Source: a virus
Lineage: Duplodnaviria > Heunggongvirae > Uroviricota > Caudoviricetes
IMG/VR virus record: IMGVR_UViG_2703718673_000007
DNA: 19,598 bases
Reading direction: 5' to 3' (one strand)
Shown: positions 6,001-18,000 of the stretch, in pieces
How positions within the stretch are numbered: the stretch's first letter is position 1
How the letters are laid out: the number at the start of each line of letters is the position of its first letter
Made by a program: the position numbers

Positions 6001-9000
6001 GGGGATTTATCCGGCTGGGAAAACGACTGGGCTTTGAGCGAATGCCGGATGATGAGGATGGCTTCATGGTGTTCAGGATAGCGGTCTGACTGCTACAGTT
6101 TTCATCATTGTGTTTAAACCAACATTGTAATTCACATTCTGACCCTGCTCCGGCAGGGTTTTTTGTTATCCAGGGGGCCATTATGGGTGGAAGTAAAGGC
6201 GGTGGTGATACCAAAGTAAAACCAACAGCAGCGCAAATAGCACAGGAAGAAGTGGCCTGGAAAGGGTGGCAGGATTACAAAAATATCCTCCGCCCGGCTG
6301 AAGATAACTTCATGGAAAAGGTCGATGACCTGAACAGTGAGCAGCAGTACGACAATATTGCTGGCACCACAAATCTGGGGTATCAGAAACAGTTTGGCGA
6401 AGCACGGAAGGAGCTTGCGGGTAATCTTGCTCAGTCCGGCGTTGACCCATCCAGTGGTCGTTTTAATGCGGTAATGAATGCGAACCAGAGTGACCAGGTA
6501 ACCGGGCAGATTGACACAACCACACGGGGGCAGGTATCGCAGGCAGATAAGTATGTTGCCGGGCTACAGGATGTTGCTGCTCTCGGTTCTGGTCAGAAGG
6601 CGGATGCGTTACAGAGTTTTAACTCTCTGGCAGACAGCAGTCTGGCAAAAGCTAAATCGGATGCACAGGCGGCGTTTACGAAACAGCAGGGGCGAGCCTC
6701 TCTTGTTGGCGCTGGTCTGGGTGCGGCAGGTGCATATGCGATGCATAAGGCTGGCGGTAGCGGAGGAAGTGGCGGTGCTAAAACACCTGGCACCGGCGCT
6801 AATGCCATTCAGCATCAGGCTCAGAACTGGAGACTGTAATTATGGAGTATGGCAAATACGAAACTCTCGCAAGGGCTGGTTATTCAGGAGCAGACCGCCC
6901 ACAGGGTGACTGGCAGACGTCAGCAGCGCTGACACGCCAACAATACGACGACTGGCGAACCAGATATTTGCCCCGCGTGGCAAGGCTGGCTGACCTTGGG
7001 GAGAACAACAGTCTGATGAATGCACAGCTTGCACGGGTGGGAGGCCTTGCCACTTCCAGTCTCCGTACAGCGCAGATGGCGCAGGATAACCAGATGGCGA
7101 GATACGGGGTAAACCGCCCGGATAATCCCGACAGTAATACGCTGGGGTTACGTAATGCCCTGGCAATTGCTGGCGCGAAAAATGGTATCCGTGAAGCCGA
7201 ACAGGATCGCCAGATGAATATTCTGACGGGGGCTTCTGCACCGGCAAGACAGAAACTGAGTGTTGGCGGCCAACTGGTGGCAGCGTAAGGGGGCAATATG
7301 GGATACGGTTTACTGGATATTGCAAATCAGTCGCGGCGTGAGGCATTACAGGGAATAAGTGACGCAGACAGACGACGTGAAGAAATTGAGGCTGCGAACA
7401 AACAGATGGCGGCGCAACAGAAAGCGCAGAACAAGCAGAATATCGGTACGGGCATTGGTACGGGGGCGGCTATTGGCGCATCCGTTGGTGGTCCTGTTGG
7501 TGCTGTTGCTGGAGCAGTAATTGGCGGCATTGCTGGTTCTTTGTTTTAAGGAGTGGTGAATGAGCGGATTTGCACAGGGGTTACTTGCCGGATTCAGCAC
7601 CGTTGACCAGGCAATGACCCGTCGTAAGGAGCTTGGTCTGCGTGAAGCACAGCTTGCCCGGCAACAGAAAAATAACGAGCGCGATTTTGAGTTTGCGCAG
7701 TCTCAGTTTGAACATAATAAAAACGTTGATCAGCGGAACTTTGATTACAGAGCCAAAGTTGACGACCGTAATTATGCACTGAAGGAGAGGGAGTTTAACG
7801 CTAACCAGAATTACCGGAATGCGTCACTGGGTATGGAGCAGCAGCGACTCCAGTTGCAGAAATACAACCAGCGACGGCTTGAGTATAACGATATGATTGC
7901 CCATAGCCAGCCACTAATGGAAGCGCTTGGAAAAGCAATTGAGGCTGGCGATCAGGAGGCTGCAACGCGTCTGTTCGGGCAGCTGCCAAAGGGACATCCA
8001 TTAATTCTTATGTCAAACGAAGGCTATGCAGCGAAAGCGGGTCAGGCCGTGATCAACCTGCAAAAAATCTTTGGTGATAAGCCGGACATGGCGATCGATT
8101 CGCTGAATACCCCGGAAAATCTCGATGTGCTTTCCGGCGTGTTTGCCCCGGAACTACAACAGCGTATTGGCATGCCTGATTCAACCGGGGACAAAACGAT
8201 AAAAGAGGCCAGGATTGGCAGTATCGTACCAGCGCAGCAGGAAGGGTACGTACTTATTGGCCTTGATCTCACATACAGCGATGGCTCCACCGCGCATAAA
8301 CCTGTAACAGAATACGGCAGTGCGCACCCTGATGATCAAACCGTGCTGGCGATACCCGTTGATAAGGCTATCGCTCAGGTCAGGGATCGCAGCAAATTTG
8401 CAGAGATATCGAAAAATTATGGTTATTTTATGCCGAAGCAGCAGGGACTTTCTCTGAAAGAGCTTCAGAAGGGGGCCAGCAACGTAGCGGCGGACGCGAT
8501 CAAGAATGGCGGTAATGCTCAGGCTGCGGTGGATGAATATTATGCTGCGACTGGTTCACAACCGCATCAACAGAAAATTCAGCAACAAAAACTTCAGCAA
8601 CAGGTTATCAACTGGGCGGGAGATGATCCTGACAAGCTGTCATTTGCCAGAAATGTAGCGGCCCGTCAGCCTGAAATGCTGGAACCTCAGAATCAGAAAT
8701 TGCTGGAGAACGGGTATGCGAATTTTCTCCGTATTCAAAAGGCCAGGGGGGAACAGGCCAGAGATGAAAGTGCTTCATCTGCATCTCAGTTTATCCGTGG
8801 ACTGAAACAGAATTACGCCCAGTAATTCACGATATTCCATTAATACCATTTCCTGATGCCCGGCCATTGTGCCGGGTTTTTTTATGGAGTCTGTATGGCC
8901 TATTCAGAGGAACAGCGTCCTGAGGCGCAACTCGGTAACCAGAATCGTAACAGCCTGAACATTCAGCAACCCGGCGAAACTGACAGCTATGAAGCATTTT

Positions 9001-15000: not shown

Positions 15001-18000
15001 TCCGTGAGGCCGGACTTGAAGAGAACGGTGTGGTGGATGCCTGGCAGAACGCCTACCGTTACTACGTTCCCCTGAAAGGTCAGGATGTTGACGGTGTGGT
15101 GTCACTGCCCCGTACAGGTAAGGGCTTCACCATCGGCGGACGTGAAAGCAGGCAGGCCATGGGGCGTGCATCCCGGGCACAGTCTCCGTCCACTCAGGCG
15201 ATACAGGACCTGAGCGAATCGCTGATCCGCCATCGCAAAAACGAAGTGGGTAACGCCTTCCTGAAACTGGTGCAGGATAATCCCGACAAGGATTACTGGC
15301 AGGTATTCACCGATGACAGACCGGATACCATGCGGACGATTGCAGAGCGCAAGGACCAGGAAACTGGTGAAACCATTCGCGAAGTTGTCGAACGCCCTGT
15401 ACCGATGGCAATGATGGCAGACCGGTACTTCACCACCAAAAAGAACGGCAAAACGTACTACATCAAACTCCATGATCCGCGCCTGATGCGTGCGATGAAG
15501 AGTATGGGACCGGAAACCAGCAATGCCTTTGTTCGTACGCTGGGGAAAGTTAACCGCTTCCTGGCAACGGTGAACACGTCGTATAACCCGGAATTCCTGG
15601 TCAGTAACTTCATCCGTGACGTGCAGACGGCGGTGATGAACCTGAAGGCGGAGCAGGGAAGGAGCGACGGTAAACTGAAAGGGCTGGATAACTTATCCGC
15701 CCTGGCTGTGGTGAAAGACAGCCGTTCTGCCATGTCAGCCGTATACGCCAGTCTGCGTGGTAAAACCCTCACGGGAAAAGGTGCACAGTGGCAGAAGGTG
15801 TGGAAAGAGTTTGTTGAGGACGGAGGGAAAACCGGCTGGTTTAACATGGGTGACCTTGAAGGCCAGCAGAAGGAAATGGATCGCCTTGTCTCACTGGCGA
15901 AGGGGGGATGGAAAGGCCAGAGTATCGGTGCATGGAATTCGTTCCTTAACCTTGTCGAGGATGCCAACGGTGCGGTTGAAAACGCTCTGCGTCTTTCTGC
16001 CTATAAGCACGCCCGTGATGCCGGTTTGTCACGCCAGCAGGCGGCGTCTCTTGCCAAAAACATGACGGTGAACTTTAACCGTCGTGGTGAGCAGGGGGCG
16101 CTGATGAATTCGCTGTACATGTTCGCCAACGCCAGCATTCAGGGAACGGCAAATCTGGTGAGAACGCTCGGACATCTTAATGGTGAGGGACCTTTACTGG
16201 AGCGCCTTCGCTGGAAGAATCTGAATGTTCCGCAGAAAATCGCGCTTGCCGCTGTGGGAGCAGGTTATCTGCTTGGCTCGCTTAACCGCAGCGTGGCGGG
16301 TGAGGATGATGACGGGGTTAACTGGTATGACAAGGTGCCGTCTCATGTGAAAGAGCGTAACCTCGTCATTATGAAATCGGTGTTCGGGGGCAAGGCCGGA
16401 GAGTACTGGAGTATTCCTCTGCCTTACGGGTACAACGTTTTCTTCCTGCTCGGGCATACTGCTGAAGGTGTGGCGGCGGGTGACCTGACGGCGTCCCGTG
16501 CTGCCGGTAATGTTGTTGGTGGTGTGCTTGGTGCATTCAGCCCGATTGGCAGTGAGACGTCGGAAACACTGTCCGGGGCATTGCTGAAAAATGCAGCGCC
16601 GACCATTCTGCGTCCGTTTGCGAACCTTGCCATGAATGAAAACTTCATGGGGGCGCAGATTTACCAGGAGAACATGCCGTTTGGTACACCAAAACCTGAC
16701 AGCCAGCTGGGAAGACGTTCAACGCCAGAAGCGTACAAGGCGTTTGCATCCTGGCTGAATGCGTTCTCAGGTGGCAGCCAGTACCGTCCCGGCGCGGTGG
16801 ATATCACACCGGAATCGCTGAAATTCTGGATTGACTATATCTCCGGAGGGACAGGGCGCTTCATTTCCAAAACCACGGATGCGGCGGTGAAATCGCTGAA
16901 TGGTATTGATATACCGGAACAGCAGGTGCCCTTCCTGGGGAAAATTTCGGGGGAGGTGATGCCGTATGCAGACCAGCAGAAGATGTACGACCGGATGACA
17001 GAGATTGCGCAGTATCACGCAGAGCTGAAGAGTCTGACCGGTGCAGAAAGAACGGCGTTCATTGACGAGAACAACGGAAAATTGTCGATGAACGGGCTTA
17101 TGCAGGATACCCGGAAGAGACTGAAGGATTTGCGTAAACAGCGTGATGCCATTTACGCCGACAGTACTCTCAGTCTGGCGCAACAGTCGGCGATGGTGAA
17201 ATCGGTAGAGCGGGATATGAAAATTGCCGTGGATCGGTTTAACCGCGAGTACAACAAAAAAGTGGGAGTGGATTAACAGAAATGGCCCCGTACGGAAGTG
17301 CGGGGCTGATTAAGAAATAAACACTCATTGACCTGTAATAACCGGAGCTATTAACATATAGTCAGAAGAGCATTTCATGTGATACAGAGAGCCGATTTAT
17401 GTTTAATGAAGAAAAAGTTGCGCAAATGGCAGCGTATTTGCTGAAAAAGCATGGCGGATCTATGCGTTTCATTAAGCTGAAGCAGCAACGGTAATGGCGA
17501 ATAGCATTTATGAGCAAAATAATCTTGATATGTTATTAGGCGATCTGATGTAACCGGGATGATGTTCACCCCTTATCGCCGGGGAACAATACCGGCAATC
17601 AGAATTGCGGATGGAACTATTCAGGCCCACGATGATATCGATGAGGAGTTTTTTCAGCCAGTATTGGATGGCTTTCTTATATCCAAATATACGCCATTTG
17701 ACATCCTCCACGCCCTGAAGGACGGGGTTTTACAGCGCACCGGATAAGATTCGGTGTTTTGTTGAAAAATACTGTGATAACAAACAGAAAACCCGTCAGT
17801 AAGACGGGCTTAGCAAGCTGGGACGGTTACTTTAATAATTTCAGTGCCTTTACATCCACTTCAACACTGCTCAGGTCTTTATCAATTTCACCCTCAATTC
17901 TTACTTTGTCTTTCGGAGAAACATTCTGACCGGCCCATATGCTGTCATCGATATCCGTGACAATTGTCCCGCTATTGTCACGAAACTCATAACGTTCATC

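Follow-up and report, generated by a model that had tools for sequence, protein, structure and literature searches.

Among the closest described systems, T7 gp14, gp15 and gp16 provide an outer-membrane pore, a periplasmic tunnel and a large inner-membrane/cytoplasmic protein, respectively. Phage P22 ejects gp7 (229 amino acids (aa)), gp20 (471 aa) and gp16 (609 aa), of which gp7 is classed as a gp14-like outer-membrane factor. In the ejectosome of N4 (Schitoviridae), gp51 forms the outer-membrane complex and gp52 the periplasmic tunnel, while gp50 is the virion RNA polymerase (vRNAP) of ~3500 aa, a giant that is thought to thread via the channel of the tail and the small ejection proteins. 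Similarity between these groups of ejection proteins is usually undetectable. Here we describe a locus in a stretch of 19,598 nucleotides (nt) from a tailed phage (IMG/VR record IMGVR_UViG_2703718673_000007), the whole of which is referred to as the window. Over nt 5600-8900 the sequence has 100% identity with that of Escherichia phage 933W (accessions AF125520 and NC_000924), which is the Stx2a-converting podophage of E. coli O157:H7 EDL933, and the same stretch is found at 80-100% identity in a further 195 Shiga toxin (Stx) phage records. We estimate at about 0.75 the probability that five consecutive genes of this locus, together with a 133-aa gene directly upstream, constitute the internal-virion (ejection) protein operon of 933W. 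The genes concerned are as follows:

5688-6089, plus strand: 133-aa gene, the first of the conserved block (933W L0129, phi24B vb_24B_43, phrog_610)
6183-6839, plus strand: 218-aa virion protein, Ala/Gly/Gln-rich and predicted to be all-helical (L0130, phi24B gp51, phrog_611)
6842-7288, plus strand: 148-aa virion protein (L0131, phi24B gp50, phrog_596)
7298-7549, plus strand: 83-aa protein named 'bacteriocin', with a charged N-terminal helix and a C-terminal glycine zipper ending GSLF-COOH (L0132, phrog_594)
7560-8825, plus strand: 421-aa Gln/Asn-rich virion protein (L0133, phi24B gp48, phrog_601)
8895-17276, plus strand: giant polyvalent protein, annotated from 8856 (NP_049532, phi24B gp47)

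In 933W, the four small genes correspond to L0130-L0133 and the giant to NP_049532; in RefSeq they are ST933Wp68-p72, labelled 'hypothetical protein' three times, 'bacteriocin' and 'LPD5 domain-containing protein'. Of 5,426 complete E. coli genomes, 424 carry the four-gene block, still as three 'hypothetical' proteins and one 'bacteriocin'. The five open reading frames (ORFs) of an initial annotation were confirmed on the plus strand (6183-6839, 6842-7288, 7298-7549, 7560-8825 and 8856-17276, encoding 218, 148, 83, 421 and 2806 aa, in that order). Gaps within this co-directional block measure 2-30 nt, and the three claimed gaps of 2, 9 and 10 nt were all recovered. A ribosome-binding site of its own had been predicted for each small gene, and a purine-rich Shine-Dalgarno (SD) motif indeed precedes every start (GGGGG before 6183, GGAGA before 6842, GGGGG before 7298 and GGAG before 7560). 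These genes are not chance ORFs, since all five match large PHROG families end to end (phrog_611, 596, 594, 601 and 616; E values from 1e-45 to 0) and are represented by peptides in a virion proteome. The module had been drawn with five genes. While these five stand, the conserved unit proved to be larger: it has six genes, of which the first is the 133-aa gene at 5688.

The presence of these proteins in virions is documented for phage phi24B, whose orthologues are 97-100% identical to the window proteins. All five were detected when CsCl-purified phi24B virions were studied using cryo-electron microscopy (cryo-EM) and proteomics (preprint doi 10.64898/2026.04.10.717836). Peptide-spectrum matches (PSMs) numbered 10,962 for the giant gp47, 1,634 for the 421-aa gp48, 523 for the 218-aa gp51, 129 for the 148-aa gp50 (83 of these from the batch sample) and 13 for the 83-aa ORF, all from peptide EALQGISDADR, with 2,226 for the portal. 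By this measure the 421-aa protein is the fifth most abundant phage protein in the virions. The gel-band profiles suit full-length products, with the 218-aa protein near 25 kDa, the 421-aa protein at ~47 kDa and the giant in the topmost bands. Furthermore, a peptide covering residues 2-21 of the 421-aa protein was observed, which argues against N-terminal processing. Copy numbers were estimated from the batch-sample PSMs per residue in the supplementary table, normalised to a portal of 12 chains, and amounted to ~23 for the giant, ~37 for the 421-aa, ~32 for the 218-aa, ~48 for the 148-aa and ~6 for the 83-aa protein. As a control, the same procedure gave 6.4 for the hexameric nozzle, 10.7 for the 12-mer adaptor gp64, 22 for the 18 fibre chains and, as the authors reported, ~31 for gp84; for the needle gp56 and the adaptor gp62 it deviated 2-5 fold.

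In the same preprint, all proteins resolved by cryo-EM fall among 15 candidates. The giant gp47 is missing from the map and was proposed to be an encapsidated ejection protein (doi 10.64898/2026.04.10.717836), and gp48, gp50 and gp51 were listed as candidate structural proteins and never placed in the model. The published phi24B data thus locate the products in mature virions, outside the ordered capsid and tail, the 83-aa member being the weak case. In addition, a diffuse density in the adaptor lumen vanishes in ejected phi24B particles, and the portal carries a barrel (doi 10.64898/2026.04.10.717836). For JC1, a Bcep22-like phage, mass spectrometry has likewise shown virions to contain the giant and the neighbours encoded upstream of it.

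Expression timing had been named as a further check. The phi24B giant coding sequence (CDS) corresponds to CM7/CM13 of Riley et al. (2012; PMC3342100), and its mRNA level rose after norfloxacin induction like that of late genes (quantitative PCR, p<0.05; PMC3342100), while the nearby lom gene was uncoupled from induction (PMC3342100). The giant is therefore induced with the late genes and is not restricted to the lysogen.

A profile comparison with the ejection proteins of P22 and T7 had also been suggested. We used hhalign to compare the five small-protein families with T7 gp13-16, P22 gp7, gp20 and gp16, and N4 gp51-53. One comparison was positive, that of the 83-aa family with P22 gp7, and all others were negative. 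The 83-aa family matched residues 155-229 of P22 gp7 with a probability of 93.2% (E 3e-7, 35% identity, 66 columns), and it matched a 54-sequence gp7 family profile, in which the tail is nearly invariant, with a probability of 91.7%. Moreover, the chains stop at the same point: ...GGPVGAVAGAVIGGIAGSLF in 933W, ...GGVWGAVIGAGVGFIGSLF in the Vibrio phage and ...STPWGAAIGGGIGLLGSLF in P22, the 83-aa protein and P22 gp7 having the terminal motif P-phi-GA-x-x-G...GSLF-COOH in common. The match score was 46.1, as compared to 11.4 +/- 2.6 for shuffles of the whole segment and 14.8 +/- 3.5 (maximum 22.9) for shuffles of the Gly-rich tail. It thus lies ~9 standard deviations over composition-matched shuffles, and since these controls score far lower, the match is not an artefact of composition. 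As judged from the sequences, the C-terminal glycine-zipper tail of the P22 ejection protein gp7 has a homologue in the 83-aa protein. The N-terminal part of gp7 matched none of the families, and the gp7 family profile was negative against the 218- and 148-aa families. Likewise, a 69-sequence gp20 family profile still gave no match for the 421-aa family. Amino acid composition provided a further likeness: the 218-aa protein contains A16 G14 Q10 N6 S7 C0 (in percent) against A17 G14 Q10 N8 S8 C0 for P22 gp7, and the 421-aa protein A12 G7 Q11 N6 S5 C0 against A14 G11 Q9 N8 S6 C0 for P22 gp20.

Gene order was a further line of evidence. In phiARM81mr (Aeromonas) and D459 (Vibrio), genes for the 133-, 218-, 148-, 83- and 421-aa proteins and the giant are collinear with those of the window and follow directly after the nozzle and needle genes, the orthologues being 22-50% identical (BLASTP, E 1e-57 to 7e-4). 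Orthologues of the 133-aa gene lie directly 5′ of the 218-aa gene in phiARM81mr (E 3e-27), in D459 (E 7e-4) and in all of 80 IMG/VR loci. The latter were returned by a scan of IMG/VR with the 218-aa family profile, and the hidden Markov models (HMMs) of the families were then mapped onto them. The order nozzle, 133, 218, 148, 83, 421, giant N-terminus and giant C-terminus was kept in all 80 loci. Fifty-six of these are complete; the remainder are cut by the locus end, lack an ORF call for the tiny 83-aa gene or have an extra weak match to the 218-aa family before the 421-aa gene. In 35 of the 80 loci, the 218-aa protein is only 50-58% identical. The synteny that had been asked about is therefore preserved, both across these loci and among phages of Escherichia, Aeromonas and Vibrio. 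In D459 (OZ195923), an HNH endonuclease gene on the minus strand (12934-13725) was seen between the 83-aa and 421-aa orthologues; to judge by its sequence and place, it looks like a homing-endonuclease insertion within the operon.

A looser version of the block was found in Bcep22 and the Ralstonia phage Gerry, which have portal, capsid and nozzle homology with 933W. Here the order is nozzle, a small ORF, GNAT, a 277-331-aa member of the 218-aa family, PAPS reductase, a 515-532-aa protein and a giant of 4200-4600 aa, and the last ~900 aa of the Bcep22-type giant match the 933W giant (E 3e-65). Genes for an acyl-CoA N-acyltransferase and a PAPS reductase thus stand among the virion genes before the giant (Bcep22 14114-16273; Gerry 10507-12504). 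The possibility that the 133-aa protein corresponds to the GNAT found at the same position in Bcep22 and Ralstonia phages was rejected (hhalign E 0.46). Comparison also failed to support the 421-aa protein as a homologue of Bcep22 gp74, Gerry gp27 or a Ruegeria 473-aa protein.

The initial annotation had further described the small proteins as Gly-rich, with a glycine zipper and a Q/N-rich coiled coil, which was borne out by residue counts, a Pfam zipper match and a predicted helix of ~125 residues. Its label 'low-complexity' was overstated, in that the compositional bias is real, yet the proteins have conserved, alignable homologues. Cys is absent from all four small proteins (218, 148, 83 and 421 aa). 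The 218-aa protein (Gly/Ala/Gln 13.8/15.6/10.1%) belongs to a family that includes Bcep22 gp70 and a BcepIL02 'virion-associated phage protein'. Its AlphaFold2 model, built on a 72-sequence alignment, is all helical with a predicted local distance difference test (pLDDT) value of 50, too poor for a fold search. The protein has a gp14-like size, no stretch of it reaches the hydropathy threshold, and the only candidate stretch is a Gly/Ala-rich C-terminal segment. The 148-aa protein has orthologues in the Aeromonas (E 2e-29) and Vibrio (E 2.5e-4) phages, and its family has a domain of ~100 residues in common with the 218-aa family (hhalign probability 95.7%, E 8.6e-9, 101 columns). On this evidence from profile alignment, we take the two proteins to be ancient, distant paralogues. 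The 133-aa protein gave no Pfam or NCBIfam match.

The 83-aa protein (Gly/Ala/Gln 18/18/8%) contains the sole transmembrane (TM)-like segment among the small proteins, and the strong zipper is located here, apart from the 218-aa protein. This zipper matches Pfam Gly-zipper_YMGG with an E value of 9.4e-6, under the gathering score. The match to Bacteriocin_IIc reaches 19.7 bits where the cut-off is 27.1 (E 8.8e-4), below what is expected of a class II bacteriocin, and since the zipper match also lies under the Pfam cut-off, the name 'bacteriocin' is probably a misnomer. The same PGAP label was encountered in the RefSeq E. coli rows sampled among the 424 genomes carrying the block. In the Burkholderia-type members of the 218-aa family, a single chain combines an N-terminal TM segment with a Gln-rich glycine-zipper C-terminus that ends ...GAGIMAF, which by eye resembles the gp7 architecture in one polypeptide; the zipper tail of Bcep22 gp70 was not recognised by hhalign as related to the 83-aa protein. 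The 218-family HMM gave an extra match between the 83-aa and 421-aa genes in three of the 80 loci, suggesting a paralogous fragment or domain.

The 421-aa protein contains 10.9% Gln. Its AlphaFold model (pLDDT 63) has a helix of ~125 residues at the N-terminus, an alpha/beta domain at residues 130-290 and a helical bundle at 300-410. In two of three large protein searches, the best 120 matches were only near-identical E. coli/Aeromonas prophage proteins, for which reason the alignment behind the 421-aa model is shallow; a mixed-profile query did better. The protein is mostly helical by prediction and lies in the right position, next to a gp15/gp20-like size range of 431-982 aa, and shows no homology to these proteins: neither PDB, Foldseek nor hhalign comparisons matched it to gp20, gp15 or N4 gp51-53. 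Foldseek of its model against the PDB gave no match at E<=0.001, and PDB sequence searches with the single proteins and with the family profiles A1, A2 and A3 gave nothing below E 0.03. We regard the protein as a candidate periplasmic-tunnel subunit by size and position only.

The giant is the largest and last gene of the block. Its annotated ATG at 8856 lacks an SD motif and overlaps a terminator-like hairpin at 8858-8877, while for the ATG at 8895 there is a GGAG 6 nt upstream, and this codon corresponds to position 1 of PHROG_616. For these reasons we favour 8895, and the protein is probably 2793 aa long instead of the annotated 2806 aa. In the 2806-aa frame used for all residue numbers below, the Pfam domains above threshold are LPD5 (1064-1213, E 6.5e-45), LPD1 (1374-1453, E 5e-24), MuF_C (1763-1852, E 1.3e-17) and LPD38 (2489-2694). 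The following segments were distinguished:

9033-10190, plus strand: N-terminal conserved domain (~aa 60-445), with a glycine zipper at aa 419-446 and weak Gly-zipper Pfam matches
12438-13214, plus strand: zincin-like metallopeptidase and LPD1 (NCBIfam CLCA_X, E 9e-44, aa 1195-1450), with LPD5 just upstream
14142-14411, plus strand: MuF_C domain (PBECR RNase-like; aa 1763-1852), part of the putative variable cargo
14436-17273, plus strand: proposed constant C-terminal module of ~950 aa (aa 1861-2806), with LPD38 at nt 16320-16937

Escherichia, Vibrio and Aeromonas phages alike have the N-terminal domain (aa ~60-445), with homologous sequence in the D459 giant (E 1.6e-25) and in the Aeromonas giant after its re-extension (E 3.7e-21). 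The latter protein, p69 of phiARM81mr (KT898134), has an annotated start at 13637 that leaves 1.86 kb as a 'gap'. Its open frame spans 11651-23209, and because the unannotated part shows homology to residues 64-421 of the 933W giant (E 3.7e-21), the CDS as deposited falls ~600 codons short. Residues 421-438 of the 933W giant (EGAAFGAAMGAPFGAVAG; nt 10116-10169) show 67% identity with the 83-aa protein at its residues 55-72 (nt 7460-7513), and this 18-residue zipper stretch includes the P-phi-G-A-x-x-G core also present in P22 gp7. The likeness may reflect a common oligomerisation or membrane-insertion element, or convergence. Apart from this zipper, weak hydrophobic or glycine-zipper segments occur at aa 194-212 and in the LPD38 region. 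Residues 460-1050 are charged and Pro-rich and likely to be disordered. HEWFHSLD is found at aa 1297, within the CLCA_X match, and a second HExxH at aa 1564; the former carries an Asp three residues after HExxH, which is given by Iyer (2017) as the signature of phage-type polyvalent-protein metallopeptidases (MPTases). That study also defines MuF_C as a PBECR RNase-like domain, not a peptidase. The phi24B preprint calls MuF-C a metallopeptidase possibly degrading peptidoglycan, which conflicts with this definition; both HExxH motifs lie outside the domain. The giant carries multiple unrelated domains, including LPDs and a zincin MPTase, and is encoded by a late, virion gene whose product is packaged, as is typical of a polyvalent protein.

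The C-terminal part of the giant behaved differently from the domains upstream. When its last 907 residues were compared by phmmer with 1.84 billion representatives of 50% identity clusters, 8,565 clusters matched at E<=1e-3 and 4,762 at E<=1e-30. Among the best 150 of these 8,565, the match extends to the C-terminus of the protein or to a few dozen residues short of it wherever the query end is reached. These 150 proteins are 555-5181 aa long (median 2633), several of them being minimal forms of ~940-1250 aa that begin with Met. Sub-segments of the C-terminal module were found in 149-150 of them, whereas the N-terminal domain was found in 9, LPD5 in 16, the peptidase/LPD1 region in 31 and MuF_C in 6. 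Since the sub-segments are near-universal and the upstream domains rare among these best 150, we propose from sequence comparison that the ~950-aa module is a core common to all these giants, behind interchangeable cargo. The module is present in the giants of the Vibrio phage (41% identity), of Bcep22 (27%, E 3e-65) and of Ralstonia, Ruegeria and Bacteroides phages. The 'DarB-like' Bcep22 gp75 and the 933W giant have only this module in common.

Together these findings supported the resemblance to ejection proteins of short-tailed phages that had been noted initially, on the grounds of virion presence, late induction, synteny, the gp7 link and composition. In this reading, the operon is transcribed with the late genes and its products are packaged within the T=9 head in tens of copies, apart from the ordered shell and tail. 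Upon infection, the needle would be released first, and the small proteins would then exit via the portal and nozzle ahead of the DNA and build a trans-envelope conduit. We attribute the conduit to these proteins because the other virion proteins are all assigned (capsid, portal, adaptors, nozzle, needle and fibres) and because a 22-nm tail cannot span the envelope. The 83-aa zipper protein and the 218/148-aa paralogues would insert in the outer membrane, the role of P22 gp7 and T7 gp14, and the 421-aa protein would extend a periplasmic tube in what is, by size and position, the gp20/gp15 slot. The giant could follow as a flexible multi-domain chain in the slot of gp16 and the N4 vRNAP, as proposed for the latter. 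It may be anchored via its zipper-bearing N-domain and/or the C-terminal LPD38 module, which would give these parts a structural or translocation function, whereas the variable middle (LPD5, zincin peptidase, LPD1 and PBECR RNase-like domain) would be effector cargo acting in the cell, possibly freed by zincin-mediated self-cleavage. More broadly, we tentatively suggest, at somewhat less than even odds, that 933W represents a widespread class of podovirus ejectosome in which the gp7/gp14 factor is split over three genes and a ~950-aa module for translocation carries between 0 and ~4000 residues of swappable cargo.

Several observations weigh against the ejection operon. The gp7 match spans only the glycine-zipper tail and the Gln-rich linker, and the 218-, 148- and 421-aa proteins and the giant were without sequence, profile or fold similarity to T7 gp14-16, P22 gp20 and gp16, or N4 gp51-53; as to fold, the low pLDDT values of 50 and 63 make the comparison uninformative. 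Gp14-like proteins typically have 4-5 predicted TM helices, which are lacking in the 218-aa protein, and a peptidoglycan hydrolase domain was not found in any block member with Pfam or NCBIfam. Some 23 copies of a 310-kDa giant (~7 MDa) is a large load, at an accuracy of spectral counting that is good only to 2-4 fold. The 83-aa protein is scarce, and the phi24B authors treated it as a contaminant, a dismissal of this 'bacteriocin homologue' that was due to its annotation. The 133-aa protein is co-conserved yet undetected in phi24B virions, as far as the accessible part of the proteome table goes. Lastly, our search of the literature returned no experiment on release, membrane insertion or a need for these proteins in infectivity, and it is ejection, channel formation, the assignment of roles and the activity of the cargo that we infer.

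Conceivably, the giant could be an injected anti-defence effector comparable to DarB of phage P1, with the small proteins serving as head-internal adaptors or chaperones, like Hdf, DarA and DdrA, and forming no DNA channel. The Bcep22/Ralstonia relatives of the giant are indeed annotated as 'DarB-like antirestriction' and stand behind small virion proteins, and packaging of the 2255-aa P1 protein requires several small virion proteins. The stoichiometries of the small proteins, similar to or above that of the giant, are in line with such a role, and the 133-aa non-virion protein could be an assembly chaperone. In addition, the replacement of the 421-aa family by a non-homologous protein in Bcep22-like phages fits a partner that co-evolves with a variable giant. 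However, an ejected conduit is needed by a podovirus and not by a myovirus such as P1, and no other unassigned virion proteins are left to supply one. The 83-aa protein is homologous to part of a conduit protein, P22 gp7. Furthermore, the N6-adenine methyltransferase and DExH helicase domains of DarB were not found in the giant with Pfam or NCBIfam, and P1 was absent from the tblastn matches of its C-terminal module. We therefore consider purely Dar-like accessory proteins unlikely, with the proviso that Dar-like and channel roles are not mutually exclusive.

The ejection operon also has to be set against two readings without any injected product. The small proteins and the giant are unresolved inside the head and are helical and flexible, as would be expected of scaffold- or core-like assembly proteins that are kept in the head or degraded and have no role after adsorption; moreover, the 342-aa scaffold-like phi24B gp70 is also present in virions at a low level. 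Yet tens of copies remain in mature, DNA-filled virions, the lumen density is lost on ejection, one member is linked to P22 gp7, and the enzymatic domains of the giant are sensible only within a host cell, so that a function confined to assembly seems very improbable. Even less credence, close to none, can be given to the possibility that the prophage expresses the block as a membrane-active toxin, a bacteriocin or a defence module in lysogenic conversion, which the initial annotation had held to be equally plausible. This view would draw on the sub-threshold matches of the 83-aa protein to Bacteriocin_IIc (E 8.8e-4) and glycine-zipper families, on the morons that adjoin the block (lom and a Hok-family ORF at 5491-5631) and on the terminator-like hairpins that flank parts of it. 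These matches, however, are confined to the glycine zipper and stay below curated thresholds, and PADLOC returned nothing for five of the proteins and marginal zipper matches for the sixth, none of them credible. Export or immunity genes are absent from the block, which is retained along with nozzle and needle genes in phages lacking lom. Expression of the giant follows the induction of the late genes and is not limited to the lysogen, and the proteins are abundant in purified virions.

Part of this picture is already known: the sequence has been available to the public since 1999, polyvalent proteins such as the giant are a described class, and the 2026 preprint proposes an ejection role for it. 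Ejection proteins in a podovirus will not surprise the specialist. In our literature search, we did not find the six-gene unit, the gp7 link, the 218/148 paralogy or the reading of the giant C-terminus as a constant core. The gp7 link rehabilitates the 'bacteriocin' as a virion component and would set right a misleading name in the databases. Short-tailed Stx phages of this kind carry the Shiga-toxin genes between E. coli strains, and with a gene set to which roles are assigned, the passage of their DNA across the envelope after BamA binding becomes testable. If the broader reading of a separate ejectosome class holds, a temperate Stx phage would inject ~20 copies of a 300-kDa peptidase/RNase-like effector along with its genome. 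A constant module with swappable cargo in thousands of clusters suggests a general phage route for large effectors, relevant to anti-defence biology and possibly to protein-delivery engineering.

The window upstream of the block contains tail genes, assigned after the phi24B cryo-EM study, and a moron region. These features, and the predicted hairpins in and around the block, are:

549-2252: nozzle
2249-3517: central needle
3583-3810 and 3816-4433: two small genes, proposed needle caps
4524-5258: lom
5282-5300: terminator-like hairpin just after lom
5491-5631, plus strand: 46-aa Hok/Gef toxin-family ORF (Pfam HOK_GEF, E 4e-8, above threshold)
6141-6160, plus strand: terminator-like hairpin with an 8 bp stem followed by TTTTTGTT, 22 nt 5′ of the 218-aa start (consensus scan and reading)
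8858-8877, plus strand: intrinsic-terminator-like hairpin (GCCCGGC...GCCGGGT, then T7) that separates the 421-aa gene from the probable giant start

The 75-aa and 205-aa genes between needle and lom (3583-4433) are the equivalents of phi24B gp55 and gp54, which were proposed to be a needle-tip BamA-binding complex (doi 10.64898/2026.04.10.717836). By spectral counting, gp54 is present at ~3 copies per virion, while gp55 was undetected in virions. The Hok/Gef ORF sits between the lom terminator and the 133-aa gene and represents a second hok-like gene, beside hokW. It is unannotated in RefSeq 933W and appears as 'small toxic polypeptide' in other Stx-phage records. Sok RNA was not found near it with Rfam at the gathering threshold, and Rfam otherwise returned nothing relevant. 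The predicted hairpins at 6141-6160 and 5282-5300 could keep moron transcription from reaching the virion genes in the lysogen, and without Q antitermination the one at 8858-8877 may leave the giant expressed at a lower level than the small genes.

The P1 Dar proteins (Hdf, DarA, DdrA, DdrB, DarB and Ulx) are also among the closest described systems. Both loci include a very large virion protein accompanied by small ones, which in P1 depends on them and is injected against host defences. Yet P1 is a myovirus, DarB domains are not shared and no member has a P1 match, and the small proteins of 933W are more plausibly channel subunits. The giant fits the class of polyvalent proteins described by Iyer, Burroughs, Anand, de Souza and Aravind (2017), which are predicted to be injected with the DNA. 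In its accessible text, that study treats polyvalent proteins as effector carriers and mentions neither the last ~950 aa as a constant core nor the small partners, and 933W does not appear in its main text. The Bcep22-like (Lessievirus) and Ralstonia GP4-like phages share with 933W the portal, capsid and nozzle homology, the C-terminal ~900 aa of the giant and the 218-aa family, to which gp70 belongs. They differ in that one gp70-type protein with a TM segment and a zipper tail replaces the 218/148/83 set, a non-homologous 515-532-aa protein takes the place of the 421-aa protein, the giants of 4200-4600 aa carry other cargo, and GNAT and PAPS-reductase genes are interleaved.

As in 933W, the T7 genes for gp14, gp15 and gp16 lie after those for the tail, and the 218-aa protein is within the T7 gp14 size range of 181-240 aa. 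Unlike T7, phi24B has no visible core stack, and the 933W block has neither a lytic transglycosylase domain nor profile or fold similarity to the T7 proteins. N4, like 933W, is a T=9 podovirus that packages a multi-domain protein of ~3000 aa, a 'beads-on-a-string' giant with a zincin-like peptidase domain, and its small ejection genes adjoin. In contrast, 933W lacks gp51-53 similarity and an RNA polymerase module, its conserved part being the LPD38 C-terminal module, and as a temperate, lambdoid phage it has no need of a virion polymerase. From P22, 933W differs by four small genes instead of two, the gp7 slot appearing to be split or expanded into the 218-, 148- and 83-aa proteins; by a giant that is 4.6 times the length of gp16 and has enzymatic cargo domains; and by the lack of evident OpdA-type N-terminal processing of the 421-aa protein. 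In both phages, the proteins are encoded, from small to large, in a late operon after the tail and needle genes. They are Ala/Gly/Gln/Asn-rich and free of Cys, the 218- and 421-aa proteins being close to gp7 and gp20 in size, and in P22 as in 933W/phi24B they are carried in tens of copies per virion, dispersed, without a core stack and behind a barrel-bearing portal.

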